Translations under genes and position numbers: made by a program
Notes under the pieces: generated by a model
Database searches by the model: none
Told to the model about the DNA's origin: nothing
The model's input: the letters and a program-made list of their open reading frames with translations, nothing else
Shown here: positions 18,813-32,404 of the stretch, piece after piece
How positions within the stretch are numbered: position 1 is the stretch's first letter
Layout: each line of letters opens with the position of its first letter
Source of the DNA: a virus
Lineage: Duplodnaviria > Heunggongvirae > Uroviricota > Caudoviricetes
Virus record (IMG/VR): IMGVR_UViG_2698536570_000001
Strand: one strand, 5' to 3'
Length of the DNA: 32,404 nucleotides

Positions 18813-20440
18813 CAGGCCTGTCTCCCTAGCAGCTCCCAGATGTTCAGGGCTGAATTCATTGGCGCGTAGCTGATCATCACCGAGTCGGCGAGGTTCGGCG
18901 ACTTGGTGCCGTCAGGCTGTTTATCAACAACGATTTTCCCCACGCCGTTAATGGAATAGGTCGGTTGCGACAGCTCGATGATGAGTTTGTCTTTGCTCGC
19001 CATGGCGCTGCTGATTGAGATAATTTCGTCCGGGTTGTAGGCCATGCCCTCAACCACGGCGCGATAGGTGTTCTGGAAAAGCTTGCGTAGCCACCACCAG
19101 CTCTGGGCCTTGGCGTTAGCAAAGAAGTCCTTGTTCAGGCGGGCGGCCTGTCCGTTGTCGCCGCGCACCGCTTCGTCGTCCGGATCAAACACCGCGCCGC
19201 TACCGCGAAACGGTGTGGCGAGTATTGACGGTCGGCGCGCAGCGTTACGCAGTTCGTTGATGGCGCGTGCATCGCCGCGAACGCCAGCGCCCAGGCCGTC
19301 CTCGTCGAAGCGAAATTCTTCGAGGTTGTCCTGTTCGCAAAAGCCGAAGACCTTCTCAACAGACTGGTAAATGTCGCTGCCAACGCCGGACCATTCACGC
19401 ACGTTCTCCAGAAGGAAGCCGTGACGGGTCGAAAAGGCATTTTTGTCCCGGCCTTCGTCGGCGACGTCCATCGCGCCCAGTCGCTTGCCCGTTGGCTGAA
19501 TACCAAGTTTGATATGCGCGTCGACGGCAGCCTGTACCCAGTCGGACGGGATCAGGACGCCTTCCGCAGATGCGCTGTAGTTCAGGTCAAGTTCCTGCGC
19601 CACCACCACCGGATTGTCGATTTTCTCGCACTCCCTGCGATACCACTCTTCATCCTTGCGCGGGTCATCTCGCCAGTGGAACGTGAATACTGGTATCTTT
19701 CCGCCGTGGCGCTTCTGCGCGAACGGGTTCGCCATGCCATTAACCGAGCTCAGGTCAATACGGCAACGGGTGGTTTGCGACAGTGCCGCATCAATCAACA
19801 GAGGACGCTGGAGGAATGCAGCTTCATCCACCAGGTAGAGCGTGGTACGGTCACCACGTCCGATATTGTCGCCAGCCTCGCCTTTGATAACCGCGCCAGT
19901 ATCTGGAAACTCAACGCGCATATACGGCGCATGCTTCTTCTCGTCCCACGAACCACGAAACTCGATGGGCAGTGTTTCCACGAACTTTCGCGCCTTCCAG
20001 AACAGCGCCTTCGGGTCACCGGTGCTGTCGACGTATTCCTCTTTACGGGAGCCGAAACCGATAACCATTTCTTTGTTGAAGAGACAAAGCGAGCAGGCCA
20101 GCCCGATCGCGGTCCAACTGAGCCCCATTTCGCGGCTCTTTTCGGTGATGCCGTTCTCCAGTCGTTCGCGCCGCTCCATGATCCAGTGAATCCACTCTTC
20201 CTGTTTCGGGAACAGCAGAAAAGGGATGGTGACCGGCAGGCCATAATCGATGTTACGCGGGTCAGTAGTCATACCCCAGTCGATGATGAACTGTGCCGGG
20301 TTGGTGCGATAAAACTGCTTTAGCGCTGGCAGCATTTCAGGGTTCTGGCGAATGCGCTGTAAGCGCTCCATCCGCCATTCAAAAACCATCTGGTAATCAG
20401 GGTTTCTGAAATCGAATTCAAACGGGAGAGGCATGATCAC
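18812..20440 (-). CDS. Terminase large subunit
   Basis: 542 aa with an ATPase-like N-terminal region (Walker-B-like [11 protein letters not shown]) and a nuclease-like C-terminal half. Overlaps the upstream small-subunit candidate by 4 nt. Confidence 0.85.
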
Positions 20441-20910
20441 CCCATCATCTTGCGGTAAATCTCTGCGGCCTGATCTGCGGTGAGGTTGGTCGTCTCGGTC
20501 TTGATCGGGCCGCCATCCTTGCCAGTGCTCTCAACCTTCAGCTTATTGGTGTAAGCGTCGCCAACCTCTTTCGCGGCCTGTTCGATAAGCTGCGCCGTCA
20601 GGGAGAAGTTTTTCATCCCCTCGGTTTTGGTTGCCATGCGGTCAAGCACGCGGAGGCGATAGGATTTGTTCGCTATCGGAATGTCGCTGGTTTCGGTCAG
20701 GAACCGTTCGCGCGTCGCGTGGAACATCTCGATCCACTTTTTGGCGAGCGTCTTACCGCTGGCCTTCGTGGGGTCGTGAGATTCAGCCTGCTGGCGGGTG
20801 ATCCTGATCCCGAATTCTTTTTGGACAGCCTCGACCACCTGCGATGGCGTGTCATAGCACGCAAGCGACTGAATGATGAAGGCTTTCACATCAGGTTTTA
20901 ATGCAGCCAT
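20437..20910 (-). CDS. Terminase small subunit candidate
   Basis: 157 aa, directly upstream of and overlapping the large terminase gene. Confidence 0.5.
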
Positions 20911-20941
20911 AAATCACCATTCGTCTTATACAGTCCAGTAT

Positions 20942-21562
20942 TTAAGCCAGTCGCAGCATGCACGTCCCGCACGCTCTGGCAATATCGAGATGAGCAACCT
21001 CCGCTGGCTGATTCGCCGCATCAATCATTTCCTGCACGTCCCGGCTCGCACCGTAACGGCGAACCACGCCCACAAACTCTTCCACGTCATGGCCGCGCAG
21101 CTTCAGCTTTGGCTGCCCTTCCTGCGTGAACTTCGGCGCACCAAATTCATCTGTCGCTTGGCAGATGTGATAAAGCTCGTGCTCTATCAGCGCGCAGAAT
21201 TCCAGATCGGAACATTGCGAGCAGTAATCGGCGGCCAGCGTGATGATGAACTGCGGCACCCTGCCGAACCATTCATACATCTGCTGCTCCATCCGCGCTT
21301 TCTGCCAGCCTCCAGCCCGCATTGCCACTTCTTCCGCCTGCCCCAGCACGGACCGCCCTTTCTTCTCGAAAGTGTTCGACGCCCAGAGAAAGCACAGATC
21401 CGCTTCAAGCAAATGCTGGTGGTCAGGGTTGTAGAGGTCACCCTCATCGCTCAGGATGTGCTGATTCAGCCACTCGCCAACGTCAATGGCGGGCATTATG
21501 CTGATGTAAGGCTTCGGGTCAGGTGGCATCGTAAAATGCGCTGGTGGGTGTGGTCTGTTCAT
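20942..21562 (-). CDS. Predicted zinc metallopeptidase-like protein (HExxH motif), function unknown
   Basis: 206 aa, ATG at 21562-21560. Contains HELYH inside ALIEHELYHICQ, plus several Cys residues. Lies between the lysis and packaging modules. Confidence 0.5.
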   Translation of the reverse strand: MNRPHPPAHFTMPPDPKPYISIMPAIDVGEWLNQHILSDEGDLYNPDHQHLLEADLCFLWASNTFEKKGRSVLGQAEEVAMRAGGWQKARMEQQMYEWFGRVPQFIITLAADYCSQCSDLEFCALIEHELYHICQATDEFGAPKFTQEGQPKLKLRGHDVEEFVGVVRRYGASRDVQEMIDAANQPAEVAHLDIARACGTCMLRLA

Positions 21563-21586
21563 GAATAATCCCAGTGCTCCATTATC

Positions 21587-21609
21587 GAAGCCCCTCAGTG
21601 AAGGGCTTC
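21587..21609. other. Inverted repeat / stem-loop in the intergenic region upstream of the metallopeptidase-like gene
   Basis: gaagccc-ctcagtgaa-gggcttc with 7-bp arms. No adjacent U-tract on either strand, so it is not an obvious intrinsic terminator. Confidence 0.4.
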
Positions 21610-21616
21610 TGTAATG

Positions 21617-21802
21617 TCAGTCCCGGACGAACGTAACCTTTGTGGTTATCATTCGCCGTACAAGGCGCGTCGCTTCGCGTTGCATTTCATCAATTACTTT
21701 TGGCGTCAGCGGCTGATGCGCATATTTGCGCTCAATCTCTGCAAAAATCCCGTTCAGCACCTCGCTGTCTGGTGGGATAACTTCAACGTTTAATCGTGCC
21801 AT
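21617..21802 (-). CDS. Hypothetical small protein (61 aa)
   Basis: ORF only; overlaps the Rz1 3' end by about 20 nt. No recognisable motif. Confidence 0.3.
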   Translation of the reverse strand: MARLNVEVIPPDSEVLNGIFAEIERKYAHQPLTPKVIDEMQREATRLVRRMITTKVTFVRD

Positions 21803-22061
21803 CTGTTTGTCCTGCCCTGTTGTTCTCGAAAGTCCTGATATCAGCCTTATCCCTGTTGCACTGTGCTAACGCTGACAACAACGCAACATTCAGGTTAAGG
21901 CTTGCTCCCCACGTAAACGGATCGGGTAAATCTGGCTGGGGTGTTTCAGCCGTCAGGTTGGCTGGTAACGGAACCACCGGAACTGGAACGTAGACCGTTC
22001 GCGTAGTCGTGCAGCCGCTTAACTGCGCCAGAAGGCACAAAACGAACAGCACAATCATCAT
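21783..22061 (-). CDS. Rz1: Rz1-like outer-membrane lipoprotein spanin (o-spanin)
   Basis: Starts at tandem ATG codons inside the Rz frame (22061-22056). Signal peptide with lipobox (MMIVLFVLCLLAQLSGC) and a Pro-rich mature region (VPVPVVPLPANLTAETPQPDLPDP). Extends about 160 nt beyond the Rz stop. Confidence 0.6.
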   Translation of the reverse strand: MMIVLFVLCLLAQLSGCTTTRTVYVPVPVVPLPANLTAETPQPDLPDPFTWGASLNLNVALLSALAQCNRDKADIRTFENNRAGQTDGTIKR

Positions 22062-22338
22062 CCGCAACAGCAGCCTTGATATCGTTCTCGGTTCTCTGTG
22101 ACTCCAGTGTGATCTGCTGTTTTGCATGCTGGTTAGCCTCCAGAACTGTATTGACGATTTGCAGTGATTGCAGGACGTTATTGGTAATGACAGTTGCCGA
22201 TTTGGCATTTTGTACAGCCTCATCAGCACGTTTCTTTTCGTGCTGATATTTGCTGTAGTAGTGGTTGGCAGACCAGATGAAAGAACCGATGACAGTAAAG
22301 AAGAATGCAGCGATAACCAGCTTATAGCTCAACTTCAT
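21946..22338 (-). CDS. Rz: Rz-like inner-membrane spanin (i-spanin)
   Basis: 130 aa with an N-terminal transmembrane segment (LVIAAFFFTVIGSFIW) followed by a coiled-coil region. Immediately downstream of the endolysin and overlapping its 3' end. Confidence 0.7.
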   Translation of the reverse strand: MKLSYKLVIAAFFFTVIGSFIWSANHYYSKYQHEKKRADEAVQNAKSATVITNNVLQSLQIVNTVLEANQHAKQQITLESQRTENDIKAAVADDDCAVRFVPSGAVKRLHDYANGLRSSSGGSVTSQPDG

Positions 22339-22798
22339 TTACCACCCCACCAGCCTCTTTAAACCGGGAAATCAGGTCACTGATTTTATGTTCATACTGA
22401 CCATAACCTGCACCAGGTAACGACGCCCAGATATTGCTGCAACGATCGATAGCCTGACGGATATCACCGCGATCAATCATCGGTAAAGCGCCACGTTCCT
22501 TAATCTGCTGCAGCGCAACAGCGTCCTGGCTTTTGGGAGAGAAGTCTTTCAGGCCAAGCTGCTTACGGTAAGCATCCCACCAACGGGAAAGAAGCTGGTA
22601 ACGTCCGGCTGCTGTTGATTTGAGTTTGGGGTTTAGCGTGACAAGTTTGCGAGGGTGATCGGAGTAATCAGTGAATAGCTCTCCACCTACAATGACGTCA
22701 TAACCATGATTTCTGGTTTTCTGTCGTCCGTTATCTGTTCCCTCTGACCACGCCAGCATATCGAGGAACGCCTTACGTTGATTATTGATTTCCACCAT
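22322..22798 (-). CDS. R: Endolysin, lambda R-type lytic transglycosylase
   Basis: 158 aa, nearly identical over most of its length to recalled lambda R ([35 protein letters not shown]...), diverging at the C-terminus. Start overlaps the S 3' end as in lambda. Confidence 0.9.
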
Positions 22799-23105
22799 CT
22801 TCTACTCCGGCTTTTTTAGCAGCGAAGCGTTTGATAAGCGAACCAATCGAGTCAGTACCGATGTAGCCGATGAACACGCTCGTTATATAAGCGAGATTGC
22901 TACTTAGTCCGGCGAAGTCGAGAAGGTCACGAATGAACCAGGCGATAATGGCGCACATCGTTGCGTCGATTACTGTTTTTGTAAACGCACCGCCATTATA
23001 TCTGCCGCGAAGGTACGCCATTGCAAACGCAAGGATTGCCCCGATGCCTTGTTCCTTTGCCGCGAGAATGGCGGCTAACAGGTCATTTTTTTCTGGCATC
23101 TTCAT
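22782..23105 (-). CDS. S: Holin/antiholin, lambda S-type with dual-start motif
   Basis: 107 aa beginning MKMPEK (Met1-Lys2-Met3 dual start). Near-identical to recalled lambda S107, with about 2 substitutions. Confidence 0.9.
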
Positions 23106-23596: not shown

Positions 23597-23980
23597 CTAT
23601 GCTACATGTTTAATTTTCTCTACACGTTTCCGGTTTTTAAACGCACTATCCAGAACCGGGTAAATCATAAACAACGAGGCATTGAGGATTTCGTCAACTT
23701 CCCGACGACAGGTTGCGAGCGATGGTTTTTGAATGCGCCCTCCGCCCCGGCATAACATCTTGCGAGGTCTTGCGACGCGATGATAGTAAGATGCAATGGC
23801 GTGCTTGGAAGATCCATGGGCGTAGTAGCTGAGGAGGATGCCAAAGGCTTTCTTGTCAATGTACATGACGGAATCGACGACCTGAGAAATCAACATTCCA
23901 TCATCATCATTGCACATTGGCCTTGTCATAACTCTTCCCGGCTCTACGCTCTCCATGAACTTCGCTATTACGCTGCTCAT
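23597..23980 (-). CDS. Late-gene antiterminator Q-like protein (short, QuuD-like)
   Basis: 127 aa, immediately upstream of the S/R lysis cassette and downstream of ninH/rusA. Size and position match the short Q family (DLP12 QuuD is recalled as the same length). Confidence 0.55.
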   Translation of the reverse strand: MSSVIAKFMESVEPGRVMTRPMCNDDDGMLISQVVDSVMYIDKKAFGILLSYYAHGSSKHAIASYYHRVARPRKMLCRGGGRIQKPSLATCRREVDEILNASLFMIYPVLDSAFKNRKRVEKIKHVA

Positions 23981-24075
23981 GCGCTTTTCCAGACGACCTG
24001 AATAAACCTATGCGCCCCACAGTTCAAGCCAGCCATTCAGCCACTCGTGCTGCTCTTTGGTGAGGTTTAGTTCTC

Positions 24076-24270
24076 TTATGCCCATCGTCTTCCCCTCTTG
24101 CCCTGTTTGACCATCAGGACGCCGTTAACTATTACGTGACGCTCGCCTTTGCTGTCTCGGTTGTACTTGAGCACTGTTCCTCTTGCGCAGGAAAGCATCC
24201 TTGCCACTTCGGTCTGATTGCCTCGTGTCTGGATAAGAAGCTCTGGTATCGTTTGAATTGTGGCGTTCAT
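24076..24270 (-). CDS. ninH: NinH-like small DNA-binding protein
   Basis: 64 aa with a motif (GNQTEVARMLSCARGTVLKY) matching recalled lambda NinH (GNQTEVARRLKCSRGTVRKY). Canonical position between rusA and Q. Confidence 0.7.
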   Translation of the reverse strand: MNATIQTIPELLIQTRGNQTEVARMLSCARGTVLKYNRDSKGERHVIVNGVLMVKQGKRGRRWA

Positions 24271-24916: not shown

Positions 24917-25638
24917 TAAGCAGCCTCCCCTGTTACTTTCAGCATTCCGTTATCGAGCAGCTTTCTGGTCAGCCACTGTTGGCCACGCCCGGTGATTTTT
25001 GTGGTGAACGATATCTGTATTCCGTGATTTGTATTGACCGCTGTTTCTTTCACTGTGAAATAGCCGCGATCCATATATTCCTGCATTGGCACATTGCGCC
25101 GGGAACCTGAAGCAATAAGGATTTTGTGATCGCGCATCCACGCAAACAGTTTGTTTGGACCAATTCCAACAACCTTTGCAAAGTTTCCAATCAAAATTCC
25201 GCTGGCCTCGCCAACGCGATCGGCAAACTCAACTTTAGGTGCGGCAATTGCGAGCTGGTTTTCCAGTTGCATTTTCTGCTCAGCAAGGTCAGCAGCAAGG
25301 CGCAACGCTTCCGGTAGCGTTTTGGGGATATTAACCGCAGCTTCTTCAAGCTCTCGCCAACGGTCAACAAGACGAGCGGTGAATTCCGGCGACAACTGGG
25401 CAACGACAATAATGCTGTCGCGCTTACCTTGTTCGCCTTCGAAGACGTAAGCCTCGACACTACGTCGCAGTCCTAAGTTATTGATTTTTTCGAAAACCTG
25501 CAATGCAGGAAGTTGAATAACTCCAGATTTAGCCAGGCGCTCTATTGATATTTTTACGTTATCTGGACGACTTCCCACCAACTCAGCGATTTCAATGCTT
25601 GTCATTTTGATGGCATTGCCATTTATTAACTCATTCAT
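24916..25638 (-). CDS. Phage antirepressor (Rha-like N-terminus, KilA-C-like C-terminus)
   Basis: 240 aa. N-terminus (MNELINGNAIKMTSIEIAELVG) resembles Rha-family regulators; C-terminal region (FAKVVGIGPNKLFAWMRDHKIL) resembles KilA-C. Confidence 0.7.
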   Translation of the reverse strand: MNELINGNAIKMTSIEIAELVGSRPDNVKISIERLAKSGVIQLPALQVFEKINNLGLRRSVEAYVFEGEQGKRDSIIVVAQLSPEFTARLVDRWRELEEAAVNIPKTLPEALRLAADLAEQKMQLENQLAIAAPKVEFADRVGEASGILIGNFAKVVGIGPNKLFAWMRDHKILIASGSRRNVPMQEYMDRGYFTVKETAVNTNHGIQISFTTKITGRGQQWLTRKLLDNGMLKVTGEAA

Positions 25639-25677
25639 CGTCTTCTTCCTCGTACATTGAGCTATTCGGATCGCTCA

Positions 25678-25806
25678 TCAGTTCTGCGCAGCAGTGCTCA
25701 CACACGTGAACTCCAGCACATGCAGCTTCTGACCGCAGTTAGCGCACGTTAAAGCTCGCTCGACGCTTTCTTTCTGGTATTGAAGGGATTGGGATGGGCT
25801 AAGCAT
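25678..25806 (-). CDS. Possible 43-aa mini-ORF with CxxC motif (unlisted, below the ORF-track cutoff)
   Basis: ATG at 25806-25804 overlaps the upstream gene stop (ATGCTTAG). Hand translation gives [42 protein letters not shown]. Three Cys only, so support is weak. Confidence 0.2.
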   Translation of the reverse strand: MLSPSQSLQYQKESVERALTCANCGQKLHVLEFTCVSTAAQN

Positions 25807-26915: not shown

Positions 26916-27293
26916 AAAAGCCCTAATTATCCCGTTGAGTTCAAAATCAAAATGGTTGAACTCTCGCATCGACCAGAGATCTCCGTAGCGCAACTCGCTC
27001 GTGAGCATGGGATCAACGATAATTTGCTGTTCAAGTGGCGCCAGTACTGGCGCGAAGGAAAACTACGTCCTCCTTCAACAACAGAAAACAACGTGCCTGA
27101 GCTGCTCCCGATAACACTTGATGCCGAAGATGTTGTCCCTGCAACCTCCCCCCGGTCACAACCTGTAGCTGCTGCGGCACCTGAATCACTCAATATCAGC
27201 TGTGAAGTGACGTTCCGGCACGGATCACTCCGTCTGAATGGTGCCATCAGCGAAAATATCCTGAACCTGCTGATACGGGAGCTCAAACGTTGA
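26916..27293 (+). CDS. tnpA: IS66 TnpA (orf1), 5'-truncated by the gap
   Basis: The reading frame is open from the gap edge (KSPNYPVEFKIKMVELSHRPEISVAQLAREHGINDNLLFKW). HTH-type transposase accessory protein; the true N-terminus is probably in the gap. Confidence 0.7.
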   Translation, partial: KSPNYPVEFKIKMVELSHRPEISVAQLAREHGINDNLLFKWRQYWREGKLRPPSTTENNVPELLPITLDAEDVVPATSPRSQPVAAAAPESLNISCEVTFRHGSLRLNGAISENILNLLIRELKR

Positions 27294-27637
27294 TCCCATT
27301 ACCATCAGGGACAAAGATCTGGCTGGTCGCTGGCATCACCGATATGAGAAACGGCTTCAACGGCCTGGCGGCAAAGGTGCAGACGATGCTGAAAGACGAT
27401 CCGATGTCAGGTCACGTTTTTATCTTCCGTGGGCGTAATGGCAGTCAGGTAAAGCTCCTCTGGTCTACCGGCGATGGACTGTGTCTGCTGACCAAACGGC
27501 TGGAGCGCGGCCGCTTCGCCTGGCCGTCAGCCCGGGATGGCAAAGTGTTCCTCACACCGGCACAGCTGGCGATGCTCCTTGAAGGTATCGACTGGCGGCA
27601 GCCTAAAAGACTGCTTACGTCACTGACTATGTTGTAG
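27290..27637 (+). CDS. tnpB: IS66 TnpB (orf2)
   Basis: 115 aa (IPLPSGTKIWLVAGITDMRNGFNGLAAKVQ...) matching the recalled IS66 Orf2 signature. Apparent TTG start overlapping the tnpA stop. Confidence 0.85.
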   Translation: MIPLPSGTKIWLVAGITDMRNGFNGLAAKVQTMLKDDPMSGHVFIFRGRNGSQVKLLWSTGDGLCLLTKRLERGRFAWPSARDGKVFLTPAQLAMLLEGIDWRQPKRLLTSLTML

Positions 27638-27685
27638 GCCTCTTTATCCTGGTCGACGCTGAATGAGCCTGGTAATATACCCGGT

Positions 27686-29224
27686 ATGAACAGCTTACTT
27701 CCTGACGATATCGATGAACTGAAACGTCTCCTTGCCGAACAGGAGGCGCTGAACCGTGCCCTTCTGGAAAAGCTGAACGAGCGTGAACGCGAAATAGATC
27801 ACCTGCAGGCGCAACTGGATAAGCTGCGCCGGATGAACTTCGGCAGCCGCTCCGAAAAAGTCTCCCGCCGTATCGCGAAGATGGAAGCCGACCTTAAGCA
27901 GTTGCAGAAAGAAAGCGATACCCTTACCGGCCGGGTGGATGACCCGGCCGTGCAGCGCCCGCTGCGGCAGACCCGTACCCGCAAACCGTTCCCTGAATCA
28001 CTTCCCCGTGACGAAAAACGGCTGCTGCCGGCAGCGTCATGCTGCCCGGAATGTGGTGGTGCGCTGAGTTACCTGGGTGAAGATGCCGCCGAACAGCTGG
28101 AGCTGATGCGCAGCGCCTTCCGGGTTATCCGGACAGTACGTGAAAAGCATGCCTGTACTCAGTGCGATGCCATCGTGCAGGCCCCCGCGCCTTCACGGCC
28201 CATCGAGCGGGGTATCGCAGGACCGGGGCTGCTGGCCCGCGTGCTGAGTTCAAAGTATGCAGAGCACACCCCGCTGTACCGCCAGTCTGAAATATACGGC
28301 CGCCAGGGTGTGGAGCTGAGCCGCTCACTGCTGTCGGGCTGGGTGGATGCGTGTTGCCGGCTACTGTCACCGCTGGAAGGGGCGCTTCAGGACTATGTGC
28401 TGACTGACGGTAAGCTCCATGCTGATGACACGCCTGTCCCGGTGCTGTTGCCAGGTAATAAGAAAACGAAGACCGGGCGGTTGTGGACGTACGTTCGTGA
28501 CGACCGTAACGCCGGGTCAGAGCTGGCGCCGGCAGTGTGGTTCGCTTACAGCCCGGACAGAAAAGGTATCCACCCGCAGAGCCATCTCGCTGGCTTCAGC
28601 GGTGTTCTGCAGGCGGATGCGTACGCCGGGTTCAACGAACTGTACCGCAATGGACAGATAACGGAAGCTGCCTGCTGGGCTCATGCCCGCCGCAAGATCC
28701 ACGATGTGCACGTTCGCACCCCGTCAGCGCTGACGGAGGAAGCCCTGAAACGGATCGGTGAGTTATATGCCATCGAGGCGGAAATAAGGGGGATGCCGGC
28801 GAAGCGACGCCTTGCAGAACGTCAGCAAAAAGCTAAACCGCGGCTGAAATCCCTGGAAAGCTGGCTGCGTGAAAAGGTGAAAACGCTGTCGCGACACTCA
28901 GAACTGGCGAAAGCGTTCACGTACGTACTGAACCAGTGGCCGGCGCTGGCTTACTATACTGACGACGGCTGGGCCGAGGCAGATAACAACATAGCTGAGA
29001 ATGCGCTACGGATGGTCAGCCTGGGCCGCAAAAACTACCTGTTCTTCGGTTCGGATCATGGAGGAGAGCGGGGAGCGCTGCTGTACAGCCTGATCGGGAC
29101 ATGCAAACTGAACGGAGTGGAGCCAGAAAGCTACCTTCGCCATGTGCTTGATGTTATAGCTGACTGGCCGATAAACCGGGTCAGCGAACTACTCCCCTGG
29201 CGCGTAGCACTGCCAACTGAATAA
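27686..29224 (+). CDS. tnpC: IS66-family transposase TnpC (orf3)
   Basis: 512 aa with an N-terminal coiled coil/leucine zipper, a zinc-finger-like CPECGG...CTQCD, and the conserved IS66 catalytic region. Confidence 0.9.
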   Translation: MNSLLPDDIDELKRLLAEQEALNRALLEKLNEREREIDHLQAQLDKLRRMNFGSRSEKVSRRIAKMEADLKQLQKESDTLTGRVDDPAVQRPLRQTRTRKPFPESLPRDEKRLLPAASCCPECGGALSYLGEDAAEQLELMRSAFRVIRTVREKHACTQCDAIVQAPAPSRPIERGIAGPGLLARVLSSKYAEHTPLYRQSEIYGRQGVELSRSLLSGWVDACCRLLSPLEGALQDYVLTDGKLHADDTPVPVLLPGNKKTKTGRLWTYVRDDRNAGSELAPAVWFAYSPDRKGIHPQSHLAGFSGVLQADAYAGFNELYRNGQITEAACWAHARRKIHDVHVRTPSALTEEALKRIGELYAIEAEIRGMPAKRRLAERQQKAKPRLKSLESWLREKVKTLSRHSELAKAFTYVLNQWPALAYYTDDGWAEADNNIAENALRMVSLGRKNYLFFGSDHGGERGALLYSLIGTCKLNGVEPESYLRHVLDVIADWPINRVSELLPWRVALPTE

Positions 29225-29265
29225 CACATCCCCGTCAATACGGTTCTCGCTGCACGCTTACGGTG

Positions 29266-29315
29266 NNNNNNNNNNNNNNNNNNNNNNNNNNNNNNNNNNN
29301 NNNNNNNNNNNNNNN
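29266..29315. other. Assembly gap (50 N) at the IS66 right end
   Basis: Run of exactly 50 n characters. Confidence 0.99.
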
Positions 29316-29608
29316 GGTGATGCTGACTAAATTGCTTGGTGTGTATTGCGTAGGTGTGTATTACTGGAATATTGGGGTTTATGTACTGATATATATTAAC
29401 AATCCGTCACGTATTAATACTCAACATTCAGGCCAGATGCGGTTTGATATTTCATTGTGTTAAATTATTTACTCCGAAGTTAATGTCGTCTGAAAAAAAT
29501 GATTAAGGGGTGGCTATAACTTATTTCAATCACGGTGCATGATCAGAGTGTCATTTAAAATTAAGCAGCAAAAAAGGCATGGAATTTGATAAACACAGTC
29601 CAAAATAT

Positions 29609-29815
29609 TTAATTTCTGGAATCATTAATTTTAGCCTGCAACCACTCCTCCAGGTCGCTTTTTAACCAGCGAGAAGCTCTACCCATCTTAATGGGTTTCG
29701 GAAATACCCCTTCCTGTATCAACTTATAGAACCATTTATCACTCAGGCCAGTAAGGCGTGTGATAAACTTCATATCGATGAACTCATCTTCCAGTAGTGC
29801 AGGTTTAGTTTTCAT
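29609..29815 (-). CDS. alpA: AlpA-family transcriptional regulator (prophage/island excision regulator-like)
   Basis: 68 aa with the AlpA-family pattern (ITRLTGLSDKWFYKLIQEGVFPKPIKMGRASRWLKSDLEEWL). Confidence 0.8.
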   Translation of the reverse strand: MKTKPALLEDEFIDMKFITRLTGLSDKWFYKLIQEGVFPKPIKMGRASRWLKSDLEEWLQAKINDSRN

Positions 29816-30120
29816 GCTGAGTGTCCCATTGCGAGAAGAGCACCGGAGCAGGCGATAACTAATTGTTCACGCCTTCTCCTCCACATGAATGGGGTGTGAC
29901 GTAAAAAAAGATCTGGAAGGAGCAGTTGAGCTACCCAACTAAGAATGCATAGATACGGAAAACCTCGTGTAACGCTGTTCTCTGACCGTTACAATTTGAC
30001 GGATGTCGAAACTTTGTAGAGTGCAACCATGAAAATTATTCAGAGTGGTGAGTTGATCAGTACTCTCCCCCAATTTACCAGAGGCAGAAAAATCACAGGA
30101 GGCAACCAGCCATTAATCAC

Positions 30121-30138
30121 TTACTAATCAGTTAGTAA
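30121..30138. promoter_or_regulatory. Inverted repeat (TTACTAA-tcag-TTAGTAA) in the divergent alpA/orphan-gene intergenic region; candidate operator
   Basis: 7-bp perfect inverted arms with a 4-bp spacer, about 125 bp upstream of the orphan gene ATG. Confidence 0.3.
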
Positions 30139-30264
30139 TCACTACTTTATCATTAAAAAATCAGCAAAAAACCAGTCAACAGTCACCTTGCAGATGCCAA
30201 ATCATCATGGTTCATTTATACTTTTGAAAGCATCGGACAGATGTGATATCACACTGGAGGGTAC

Positions 30265-31191
30265 ATGCTTAGGTATGACGAAGTGAGAGAGGAGTTCTTT
30301 TCCCTTTACGTTCTGAGTCTGTATTACAACGAAGATTACATTAAGCAGGCGAGTAATTTTGACACGCCTGAGGAATTTCAAAAACTCATTAATCATATAT
30401 TGAACACTAAATTCCCATTCAATAATGAAGCAATACAAAGTGCGTGTGCTTACTTGAAAAAACAGTTCCATTACAAAATCATTGACAAAGAGAAGTTCGA
30501 TTGTTTCAAAGGTTCTGATAGAGGATCGTGGTTTGCCTTAATGTATATATATAACAACAGAATCAGTCCTGAAACCTCCTCGAACGTGAATATCTTTGCA
30601 CAAGATAATATTTACAACCCAAACTCAACTTCTGCATCCTTTTTTGAATTTGAAAACATTGATGAAATTAAAAATTTCTCACTTGATGAAGCGCAAGCCG
30701 AAATGCAGGTGGGCATTTCTCCTAGCAAAAAAGGAAAGGATAGAGACATACCGGAAAAATATACGCGTGACTTTTACTTTTCACTTGGCGCAGACCCCAA
30801 AGAATACAGCCCAAACACAACATCTGAACAAGAGCGAATTTGTATCCTGATGAGGTTTATCGATTTTGCACCTGCAAGCTTAAAGAAGAAAATTTCTTAT
30901 TTTCGCAAGTTGCATGATAAATGGTTAAATCAATATAATACATTCCTTACTGATTATGACTGGTTAGATAAAAAAGATGAAGAACAAGCCATCTATTGCT
31001 GGGAGTATCTGAGAAATAAAAACATGATCCCCCTCTATTTAAAACCATATAACACTGCAATGAGAATACAGATGATCATTGCATGCATGGATAGTTGGGA
31101 CACTGGAGTTGAAGAAAAATATTTCTTTATTCAGAAAATGAAGCATGCTTGGCAGCAGGCTGTTTCATCACGTAAAAAAGACAAAAAGTAG
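30265..31191 (+). CDS. AT-rich orphan protein (308 aa), function unknown; island cargo
   Basis: Long ORF with ATG at 30265 and GGAGGG just upstream. Strongly AT-rich compared with flanking genes. No signal peptide, transmembrane segment or recognisable catalytic motif; rich in N/K/Y/D/E/F. Confidence 0.55.
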   Translation: MLRYDEVREEFFSLYVLSLYYNEDYIKQASNFDTPEEFQKLINHILNTKFPFNNEAIQSACAYLKKQFHYKIIDKEKFDCFKGSDRGSWFALMYIYNNRISPETSSNVNIFAQDNIYNPNSTSASFFEFENIDEIKNFSLDEAQAEMQVGISPSKKGKDRDIPEKYTRDFYFSLGADPKEYSPNTTSEQERICILMRFIDFAPASLKKKISYFRKLHDKWLNQYNTFLTDYDWLDKKDEEQAIYCWEYLRNKNMIPLYLKPYNTAMRIQMIIACMDSWDTGVEEKYFFIQKMKHAWQQAVSSRKKDKK

Positions 31192-31297
31192 ATCAAGTTA
31201 ATAATTTTCAGATATATATCATCCCTTTGAACATACCAGATTAACGGTGGAATCTCACGATTCTGCCGTTTTTGTATTATTTTTCAGAGGAGTAGTA

Positions 31298-32161
31298 ATG
31301 AACAATTCTGAAGGATTGAAGCCGTTTCAGCAATCGCTCGCTGGTCTGCCACAGTGGGTGTCTGAACGTATATTGCAGCAGATAAATCAGTTAACCCGCT
31401 ACGAGCCAGTGATCGGCATTATGGGTAAAACCGGTGTTGGGAAGAGCAGTCTGTGCAATGCCCTGTTTGCCGGAGATATATCACCGGTCAGCGATGTGGC
31501 TGCATGTACCCGTGAGCCACTGCGCTTTCGCCTGCAAGTCGGCGACCGCTATATGACGCTGGTGGACCTGCCCGGCGTGGGCGAAAGTGGTGCTCGCGAT
31601 ACCGAGTATGCTGCGCTGTACCGCGAACAGCTTCCTCGCCTCGACCTGGTACTGTGGCTGATTAAGGCCGATGACCGGGCGCTGACGGTGGATGAACATT
31701 TTTATCATCAGGTGATTGGAGAGGTATACCGGCATAAGGTGCTGTTTGTTATCAGCCAGTCGGATAAGGCCGAACCCACCAGCGGTGGGGGACCGTTGTC
31801 CACGGCGCAGAAGCAGAATATCAGCCGTAAAATCTGTCTGCTGCATGAGCTGTTCCAGCCCGTACATCCGGTGTGTGCCGTGTCGGTCCGTCTTCAGTGG
31901 GGACTGCGGGTGATGGCCGAGCGAATGATTAAGTGCCTGCCACGTGAGGCCACCAGCCCGGTGGTGTCGCAACTCCATCCTTCCTTTCGCACGACGGTAG
32001 TCCGGGAACAGGCTCGTAGCGATTTTGGTGAAACCGTCGGGGCCGTACTCGATAGCATCAGTGCCTTTCCCCTGATACCCGCCCCGGTGCGGGCCGTCAT
32101 TCAGGCCGTGCGCACCACCGTGGTGTCAGTGGCCCGTGCCGTCTGGGATTTCTTCTTCTGA
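31298..32161 (+). CDS. YfjP/YkfA/YeeP-family GTPase (CP4-type island backbone)
   Basis: Internal ATG at 31298 with GAGG 7 nt upstream gives a 287-aa product. P-loop GKTGVGKSS and close match to recalled E. coli YfjP (MNNSEGLK...QWVSERILQQINQLT...). Confidence 0.85.
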   Translation: MNNSEGLKPFQQSLAGLPQWVSERILQQINQLTRYEPVIGIMGKTGVGKSSLCNALFAGDISPVSDVAACTREPLRFRLQVGDRYMTLVDLPGVGESGARDTEYAALYREQLPRLDLVLWLIKADDRALTVDEHFYHQVIGEVYRHKVLFVISQSDKAEPTSGGGPLSTAQKQNISRKICLLHELFQPVHPVCAVSVRLQWGLRVMAERMIKCLPREATSPVVSQLHPSFRTTVVREQARSDFGETVGAVLDSISAFPLIPAPVRAVIQAVRTTVVSVARAVWDFFF

Positions 32162-32252
32162 GTATTTAACCCATCCCTGTTACTTCCCTGCCCCTGTCGC
32201 CGATGCGACGGGGATTTCTTTTATTTGTTTTCCCATTATGAGGAGTCTGCTT

Positions 32253-32404
32253 ATGACCCGTCTGGCTTCGCGCTTTGGCGCAGCAAACCTTATCCGTCGC
32301 GACCGTCCGTTAACCCGTGAAGAGCTGTTTCGCGTAGTGCCCAGTGTATTCAGTGAGGACAAACACGAGTCCCGTAGTGAGCGTTATACCTATATACCCA
32401 CCAT
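32253..32404 (+). CDS. DUF932 (YfjQ-like) protein, 5' portion only; runs off the window
   Basis: ATG at 32253 with AGGAG upstream. Translation MTRLASRFGAANLIRRDRPLTREELFRVVPSVFSEDKHESRSERYTYIPT matches the recalled YfjQ N-terminus. Confidence 0.55.
   Translation, partial: MTRLASRFGAANLIRRDRPLTREELFRVVPSVFSEDKHESRSERYTYIPT

Follow-up and report, generated by a model that had tools for sequence, protein, structure and literature searches.

A phage metallopeptidase gene of the PF18894 family and its reciprocal linkage to the gene for a DUF2280-type, presumed small terminase subunit

The stretch of DNA analysed here (32,404 nucleotides; IMG/VR record IMGVR_UViG_2698536570_000001, a virus of the Caudoviricetes), hereafter the window, carries between its lysis genes and its terminase genes two open reading frames (ORFs) on the minus strand: one of 61 amino acids (aa), referred to as orf61, and one of 206 aa that encodes a putative metallopeptidase. 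A preliminary description made from the sequence alone had pointed out both ORFs, the spacer of 54 nucleotides (nt) between them (21563-21616) and a hairpin without a U-tract in that spacer, and all of these were confirmed on the minus strand. The 206-aa gene is followed after 34 nt by a gene for a DUF2280 protein, presumed to be the small terminase subunit (TerS), and the stop of that gene overlaps the start of the gene for the large terminase subunit (TerL). The features of this region are:

21617-21802, minus strand: 61-aa ORF (orf61), phrog_12811
21580-21616, minus strand: conserved 5'-leader stem-loop of the peptidase gene, with a core of 10 base pairs (bp) at 21587-21609
20942-21562, minus strand: 206-aa peptidase gene, PF18894, RefSeq WP_001567573.1
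21542-21556, minus strand: codons of the N-terminal RPHPP (family motif RPxPP), outside the Pfam domain
21167-21181, minus strand: codons of HELYH (residues 128-132), the predicted zinc-binding and catalytic motif
21089-21091, minus strand: codon of H158, within the conserved GHDVEEF, a candidate third metal ligand
20960-20971, minus strand: codons of the C-terminal C198-G-T-C201, outside the Pfam domain
20437-20910, minus strand: DUF2280 protein, presumed small terminase subunit (TerS), PF10045, 167.6 bits
18812-20440, minus strand: TerL, large terminase subunit, phrog_2 ('terminase large subunit')

Classification with profile hidden Markov models, which had been proposed as a check, places the 206-aa protein in the Pfam family PF18894 (PhageMetallopep, 'putative phage metallopeptidase'): the match covers profile positions 2-134 of 134 and scores 148 bits (E 2e-43), far above the gathering cut-off of 23.7. 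The protein also matches PHROG 513, gives no NCBIfam match, and is present in identical form in RefSeq as 'putative metallopeptidase'. With its full-length domain match and its invariant HExxH motif it is a typical member, and no difference from the family was seen; the gene and the family are already catalogued and the gene of the window is an ordinary one. The family is large: 3,500 clusters at 90% identity were obtained in one search and 890 matches in another, made among 50%-identity representatives, and a 2-kb query region was matched in 662 of 5,426 complete E. coli genomes.

The HELYH motif in a cysteine-rich context, which had been the starting point of the preliminary description, is indeed found at residues 128-132 of a protein that contains seven cysteines (C57, C114, C117, C123, C134, C198 and C201). 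A random protein of 206 aa is expected to contain about 0.006 HExxH motifs (our own estimate, from typical residue frequencies) and the motif is kept in the relatives, namely in every full-length one among 150 listed family representatives, and therefore its occurrence is beyond chance. Its conservation among homologues, on which the metallopeptidase assignment had been made to depend, was likewise evident from an alignment of 88 full-length representatives (33-52% identity): H128, E129, H132, H158, G171 and G199 are invariant, and H48, H50, W60, W86, T108, D159, E161, F163 and C198 are conserved in at least 90% of the sequences. The Pfam model spans residues 30-184 only, and two further conserved elements fall outside it: an RPxPP-like motif, present in 100 of 122 full-length representatives at a fixed distance of ~120-127 residues before HExxH, and a C-terminal CGxC (C198 98%, G199 100%, C201 88%). 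The two cysteines of the latter may form a second metal site together with H48 (97%) and H50 (95%). From general knowledge of zincins it is presumed that the zinc would be held by H128, H132 and either H158, the candidate third ligand, or E161, and that E129 would act as the general base. Judged by these residues, the 206-aa protein is a catalytically intact, apparently active phage-specific zincin of the PF18894 family.

The AlphaFold2 model of the protein (predicted local distance difference test, pLDDT, 93.9; predicted template modelling score, pTM, 0.87; residues 1-10 at a pLDDT of about 95) has a fold of the zincin type, and the best structural matches are peptidases. Foldseek found no significant match to this model in the PDB, and a structural search of BFVD recovered other PF18894 proteins only. 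Searches of the PDB chain sequences with the single protein, with the profile of the 88 sequences and with a DUF2280 profile gave nothing, i.e. no solved relative of either protein. Among the closest known systems are the minigluzincins (projannalysin 4jix, selecase 4qhf and proabylysin 4jiu) and the M48/M56 catalytic domains (BepA, HtpX and BlaR1), which the minigluzincins resemble. A minigluzincin is a single domain of ~100-110 residues, whereas the 206-aa protein adds N- and C-terminal elements, so that ~90 residues align; sequence homology between the two was not detected.

A part of the family is longer. Among the 150 listed representatives 37 have at least 250 aa, and 21 of these were grouped by a shared IS3-like helix-turn-helix (HTH) pattern at the N-terminus; the sole long representative that was scanned (P0130) has a sub-threshold match to HTH_Tnp_1. 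The idea that this N-terminal HTH is a fused DUF2280 domain was rejected (hhalign probability 0.6%). Various PF18894 proteins carry the label 'transposase' (PHROG 513, JBD44 gp16, phiPSA1, ENT47670, YMC11/02/R656 and others), and the IS3-like HTH of the long members may lie behind it; the label looks like a mis-annotation that has been propagated, and for PHROG 513 it is probably an error.

To establish the genetic context of the peptidase gene three collections of loci were compared: i) 80 close relatives from IMG/VR; ii) 79 informative loci, one genome per bacterial species, from a scan with a 12-sequence peptidase alignment, the hits of which belong to the Enterobacterales and Pseudomonas and share 65-99% identity; and iii) for the converse comparison, 80 diverse DUF2280 loci that were recovered from IMG/VR with a DUF2280 alignment. 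Distant family members were examined by look-ups of individual representatives (IMG/VR scans with single distant representatives found nothing). A DUF2280 gene lies directly downstream of the peptidase gene in all 80 close relatives (gap ~34 nt), even in the 12 loci in which TerL has been swapped for an unrelated one, and in 79/79 of the species-level loci. The same order was found in phages of six genera (Salmonella Oslo, Pseudomonas JBD44, Acinetobacter Acba_3, Vibrio Athena1, Rhizobium TM3_3_3 and Burkholderia vB_PL1) and in the metagenomic representatives P0130, P0188, P0142 and P0214 (37-49% identity); in vB_PL1 an endonuclease gene with NUMOD4 and HNH_3 domains stands between the two (locus L084, 4588-5139). 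Conversely, a PF18894 gene occurs upstream and on the same strand in 78 of the 80 diverse DUF2280 loci, adjacent in 62 and separated by 235-1158 nt in 16, and HExxH is retained in 76 of these 78 genes. Broken down by host genus, the counts of peptidase and DUF2280 genes in the phage database nearly agree, with 62/62 for Acinetobacter, 44/44 for Pseudomonas, 8/8 for Vibrio, 7/7 for Burkholderia and 8/9 for Klebsiella. With few exceptions, then, the peptidase gene and the DUF2280 terS gene go together in either direction of the comparison; the two are a conserved two-gene unit, and the peptidase gene is the first gene of the packaging module.

The surroundings of this unit vary on either side. 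The upstream neighbours of the peptidase gene fall into 63 homology clusters among the 79 species-level loci, and the TerL proteins beside the pair form at least 5-6 unrelated clusters, which represent four or more classes (Terminase_3, Terminase_6, GpA and an unclassified one of ~540 aa). Identity to the peptidase and TerS of the window drops in parallel (73/73% in Oslo, 60/60% in JBD44 and 46/50% in Acinetobacter phages). Mosaic breakpoints were seen within terS as well as at the junction between the peptidase gene and terS, which indicates that the two genes can be newly combined, yet only when a different DUF2280 allele comes in. The metagenomic representative P0265 has the order peptidase, a non-DUF2280 HTH protein and a Terminase_6N TerL, and shows that the position upstream of the terminase genes persists without DUF2280. 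The preliminary description had regarded the peptidase gene as an accessory gene inserted at a variable junction, and this view had to be given up: the gene is locked to the DUF2280 terS while its upstream region and TerL vary, and the patchy presence independent of the flanks by which a moron is recognised was not observed for it.

The same context data bear on two other proteolytic roles. An ImmA/IrrE-like regulatory protease (COG2856, Peptidase_M78) would cleave a phage or host repressor and thereby control induction; it resembles the 206-aa protein in being a prophage-encoded HExxH metalloprotease, and the generic motif and the prophage setting are what speaks for it. The protein nevertheless has no Peptidase_M78/ImmA Pfam match, its gene follows the lysis genes within the late operon, and its neighbours are orf61 and the terminase genes (DUF2280 being downstream in 159/159 related loci) rather than an XRE repressor gene; in the corresponding prophage of E. 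coli O128ac:H12 strain AW1.7 a cI-like/LexA-family repressor gene lies ~13 kb away, in the early region. We consider this role very improbable. Nearness to the morphogenesis genes might suggest a prohead (head-maturation) protease, which is scarcely credible for a protein that matches no prohead-protease family, is encoded upstream of terS instead of between the portal and major capsid genes, and accompanies several different head modules.

Several minor observations were made at the junctions of this unit. In three environmental phages a gene for a sigma-70-family protein or a response-regulator receiver is found upstream of the peptidase-DUF2280-TerL block (L092, 463-1251; L096, 167-1171; L099, 2522-2965), which is consistent with the peptidase gene opening a late operon. 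The inserts between peptidase and terS genes have their longest ORF on the opposite strand in 10 of 11 cases examined. In Pseudomonas sp. ANT_H4 (L159) a 188-aa ORF, in our reading proteasome-beta/HslV-like, overlaps the peptidase gene at its start, and in phage phiAH14a (H35) a 'proteasome subunit beta' is annotated where the peptidase matches; on this reading some Pseudomonas prophages would carry a second peptidase-like gene at this junction. A contig of 684 bp in a Myxococcus xanthus assembly (L138; coverage 0.76x), encoding a protein that is 75% identical to the E. coli peptidase, is probably a contamination and not a myxobacterial prophage.

Given this context, our tentative interpretation, to which we would assign slightly less than an even chance, is that the peptidase takes part in the initiation of packaging and is linked in this to the DUF2280 TerS. 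Both genes would be transcribed as part of the late operon, with a conserved stem-loop on their 5' side, and the peptidase, a predicted zinc-dependent hydrolase (probably a peptidase), would act at packaging initiation with or on the TerS-DNA complex, possibly by processing TerS or by removing a protein that blocks the DNA substrate. The HTH-bearing relatives suggest proximity to DNA. The wider proposal, that PF18894 represents a previously unrecognised third packaging component in phages with DUF2280-type small terminases, is rather doubtful. Such a component would be a zinc enzyme on the TerS-DNA initiation complex, and its logic would be comparable to that of the HNH accessory proteins of HK97-like terminases, with a protease fold in their place.

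HK97 gp74 is the nearest analogue. This HNH enzyme is described as stimulating TerL cleavage at cos (PMC9410871). The likeness consists in an extra metal-dependent enzyme that accompanies the terminase, and in the placement beside the terminase genes (80/80, 79/79 and 78/80 in the three collections of loci). The two differ in kind, gp74 having an HNH beta-beta-alpha-metal finger and the 206-aa protein being a zincin without an HNH Pfam match. From the work of Kala et al. of 2014, HNH genes are said to adjoin terminase genes across many phages; enzymes of the gp74 type are reportedly linked to the TerL/portal/capsid set, whereas the peptidase is linked to a TerS family. The analogy raises the question whether the 206-aa protein is, instead of a peptidase, a nucleic-acid hydrolase that depends on a metal and is built on a zincin-like scaffold, as YbeY is, and whether it aids pac/cos cleavage in the manner of gp74. 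The position upstream of the terminase genes recalls gp74, and HNH genes adjoin the peptidase gene in some phages; the HExxH glutamate is, however, invariant as in true peptidases, the closest structures are those of peptidases, the HNH protein of vB_PL1 has NUMOD4 and HNH_3 domains, which we take to be a homing-endonuclease architecture, and the accompanying TerLs have RNaseH-like nuclease domains of their own. A nuclease of this kind is distinctly improbable.

A different way to assist terminase loading would be that of a SprT/Wss1-like DNA-dependent protease, which would clear covalently or tightly bound proteins from the concatemeric phage DNA and so allow the terminase to load and translocate. 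The N-terminal HTH in a subset of the family, the late expression and the place of the gene beside that of the DNA-recognition subunit of the terminase would agree with this. Set against it are the absence of any SprT-like or WLM Pfam match at E <= 0.01 (PF18894 is the sole Pfam match), the PDB profile search, which finds nothing, and the spacing of the candidate ligands: SprT/WLM proteins have their third histidine within ~10 residues after HExxH (HExxHxxxxxH-type), whereas the next invariant histidine here (H158) comes 26 residues after H132. The differences in family match and third-His spacing separate the protein from SprT, SPRTN and Wss1, and we hold a role of this kind to be improbable. 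Three candidate families had been named in the preliminary description: the phage-specific metallopeptidase has been retained, as PF18894, and ImmA/IrrE and SprT have been dropped because of the lack of a Pfam match, the lack of an adjacent repressor gene and the third-His spacing. Family searches and context together led us to reject ImmA/IrrE, SprT at the level of sequence, a head protease and a known defence protein as identities of the 206-aa protein.

A number of observations weigh against a role in packaging initiation. Salinibacter phage 4_20 (L091/L188) has DUF2280 and no PF18894 gene in its record of 45.9 kb, and none of the 181 Salinibacter phage records with DUF2280 is among the PF18894 matches at E 1e-5; these S. 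ruber phages form a natural control group of 'DUF2280 without peptidase'. Divergent PF18894 members of large phages lie away from the terminase genes (Bordetella PHB04, 94 kb), as do those in the 139-kb and 70-kb contigs with P0223 and P0235, where the peptidase is not beside terminase genes. The Salinibacter and large-phage exceptions show that each of the two genes can occur without its partner. In the 16 of 78 loci mentioned above the two are separated by other ORFs, which for the most part lie on the opposite strand, and homologous recombination among phages that share the arrangement could preserve the pair without functional coupling. TerL proteins carry nuclease domains of their own, and no terminase is known to need a protease. 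The TerS role presumed for DUF2280 rests on its position and on the annotation in some records, and the literature on PF18894, DUF2280, COG4900 and on metallopeptidase together with terminase yielded no functional study of any family member. In Salinibacter phage 4_20 the DUF2280 gene is preceded by one for a 172-aa protein; it was considered as a divergent peptidase and rejected, as it is read as a hydrophobic membrane protein, has no HExxH and gives an hhalign probability of 0.2%.

The same exceptions are what would be expected of a late counter-defence or host-takeover protease whose gene hitch-hikes with the DUF2280 terS, having joined it early and recombining only with like modules. In its favour, DUF2280 works without the peptidase in the Salinibacter phages, the peptidase gene of large phages can lie apart from the terminase genes, the pair tolerates the insertion of unrelated ORFs, the mosaic breakpoints lie at and around the junction of the two genes, and in the sole paper found that names the domain it is counted among accessory genes whose role is unknown. 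Counter-defence genes are normally patchy, however, whereas here the reciprocal co-occurrence amounts to ~97-100% across alpha-, beta- and gamma-proteobacterial phages with both flanks shuffled, and the identities of peptidase and TerS fall in parallel. PADLOC gave no match for the 206-aa protein, nor for the 61-aa and DUF2280 proteins. We regard a counter-defence or takeover function as unlikely, and keep to packaging initiation as the tentative interpretation.

The point of interest is that a zinc enzyme and a small-terminase family, both uncharacterised, are locked to each other in phages of many proteobacteria while the surroundings of the two are shuffled. If this linkage is functional, it points to an extra enzymatic step in packaging initiation and would correct the labels 'transposase' and 'accessory gene', and in PF18894 a protease would, if this is true, have been connected with the function of a terminase for the first time; if it is merely a product of history, the result is one of routine annotation. 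The pairing of the peptidase with DUF2280 was not described in the literature searched, and constitutes a modest but testable lead.

The hairpin in front of the peptidase gene consists of a core with a 10-bp stem and a 3-nt loop, not followed by a U-run, and of five more flanking pairs that extend it to 21580-21616. Since one of the pairs, a C-A mismatch on the plus strand, becomes a G-U wobble in RNA of the sense strand, the hairpin pairs better in the sense (minus-strand) transcript. Within its 81-nt context it folds at -29.3 kcal/mol (z = -4.1), and 0 of 200 shuffled sequences fold as well; the structure that had been pointed out in the spacer is thus real, and its location is tied to the peptidase gene, not to orf61. 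Relatives keep it upstream of the peptidase gene whether or not they have orf61, also where orf61 is lacking and the upstream DNA is unrelated, and variant stems stay paired through changes on both sides. As the hairpin travels with the peptidase gene and the identity to relatives collapses at its left edge, it appears as a conserved 5'-leader element and as the left mosaic boundary of the peptidase-terS module. A consensus scan of the junction revealed no terminator and no convincing promoter; the hairpin may be an RNA stabilising or processing structure.

The upstream neighbour orf61 behaves differently. Alleles at 60-65% identity keep their length (60-64 codons) and the divergence lies mostly at the third codon position (e.g. 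17/8/40 differences at positions 1/2/3), a bias that marks orf61 as a real coding sequence. It has a narrow range (39 protein clusters, every named one enterobacterial). The co-occurrence of the 61-aa and 206-aa genes across prophages, proposed as a check on their association, did not hold: orf61 is present in 34/80 of the close relatives, 2/80 of the species-level loci and 0/80 of the diverse DUF2280 loci, a patchy presence as expected of a moron or variable accessory gene. It also ends lysis cassettes ahead of other terminase types without a peptidase gene, e.g. directly before a phrog_370 terS (L105), or followed by a 191-aa ORF without known function that precedes a Terminase_2 gene (L103). 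In short, orf61 is a genuine small gene of narrow range at the end of the lysis cassette, unlinked to the peptidase gene. In the window its start overlaps the end of the annotated Rz1/lysC by 20 nt (21783-21802), and in L105 and L106 the homologue begins at the last base of the upstream PF28015 'LysA' gene, which suggests that orf61 is translationally coupled to the lysis cassette.

Positions 400-26865 of the window are 100% identical to the AW1.7 prophage named above. The minus strand carries all late genes, in the order Q antiterminator, holin, lysozyme, Rz/Rz1, orf61, 206-aa gene, DUF2280 gene and TerL (for which no Pfam match was found); TerL is followed by a DUF1073 protein, which we take to be the portal, and by a head and tail module of the myovirus type. 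The lysis genes are:

22782-23105, minus strand: lambda-family holin
22322-22798, minus strand: lysozyme
21946-22338, minus strand: Rz with embedded Rz1/lysC

An IS66-family element (tnpA, tnpB and a DDE_Tnp_IS66 transposase; 26916-29265) is inserted next to ninB. The match to the AW1.7 prophage locus ends beyond it, and the remaining part (29266-32404) encodes a 304-aa MMR_HSR1/dynamin-like GTPase (31247-32161) and a 308-aa protein without a Pfam match, so that the prophage appears to be truncated or rearranged at the IS66 element. The Q antiterminator gene (23597-24085) is a pseudogene with an internal stop in RefSeq, and ninF (about 25631-25806) is marked there as frameshifted. Together with the IS66 element this suggests a defective prophage in which expression of the late operon may have been lost. 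A 231-aa ORF (20873-21568, plus strand) runs antisense to the peptidase gene; as the evidence for coding is strong on the minus strand, we regard it as a shadow ORF.

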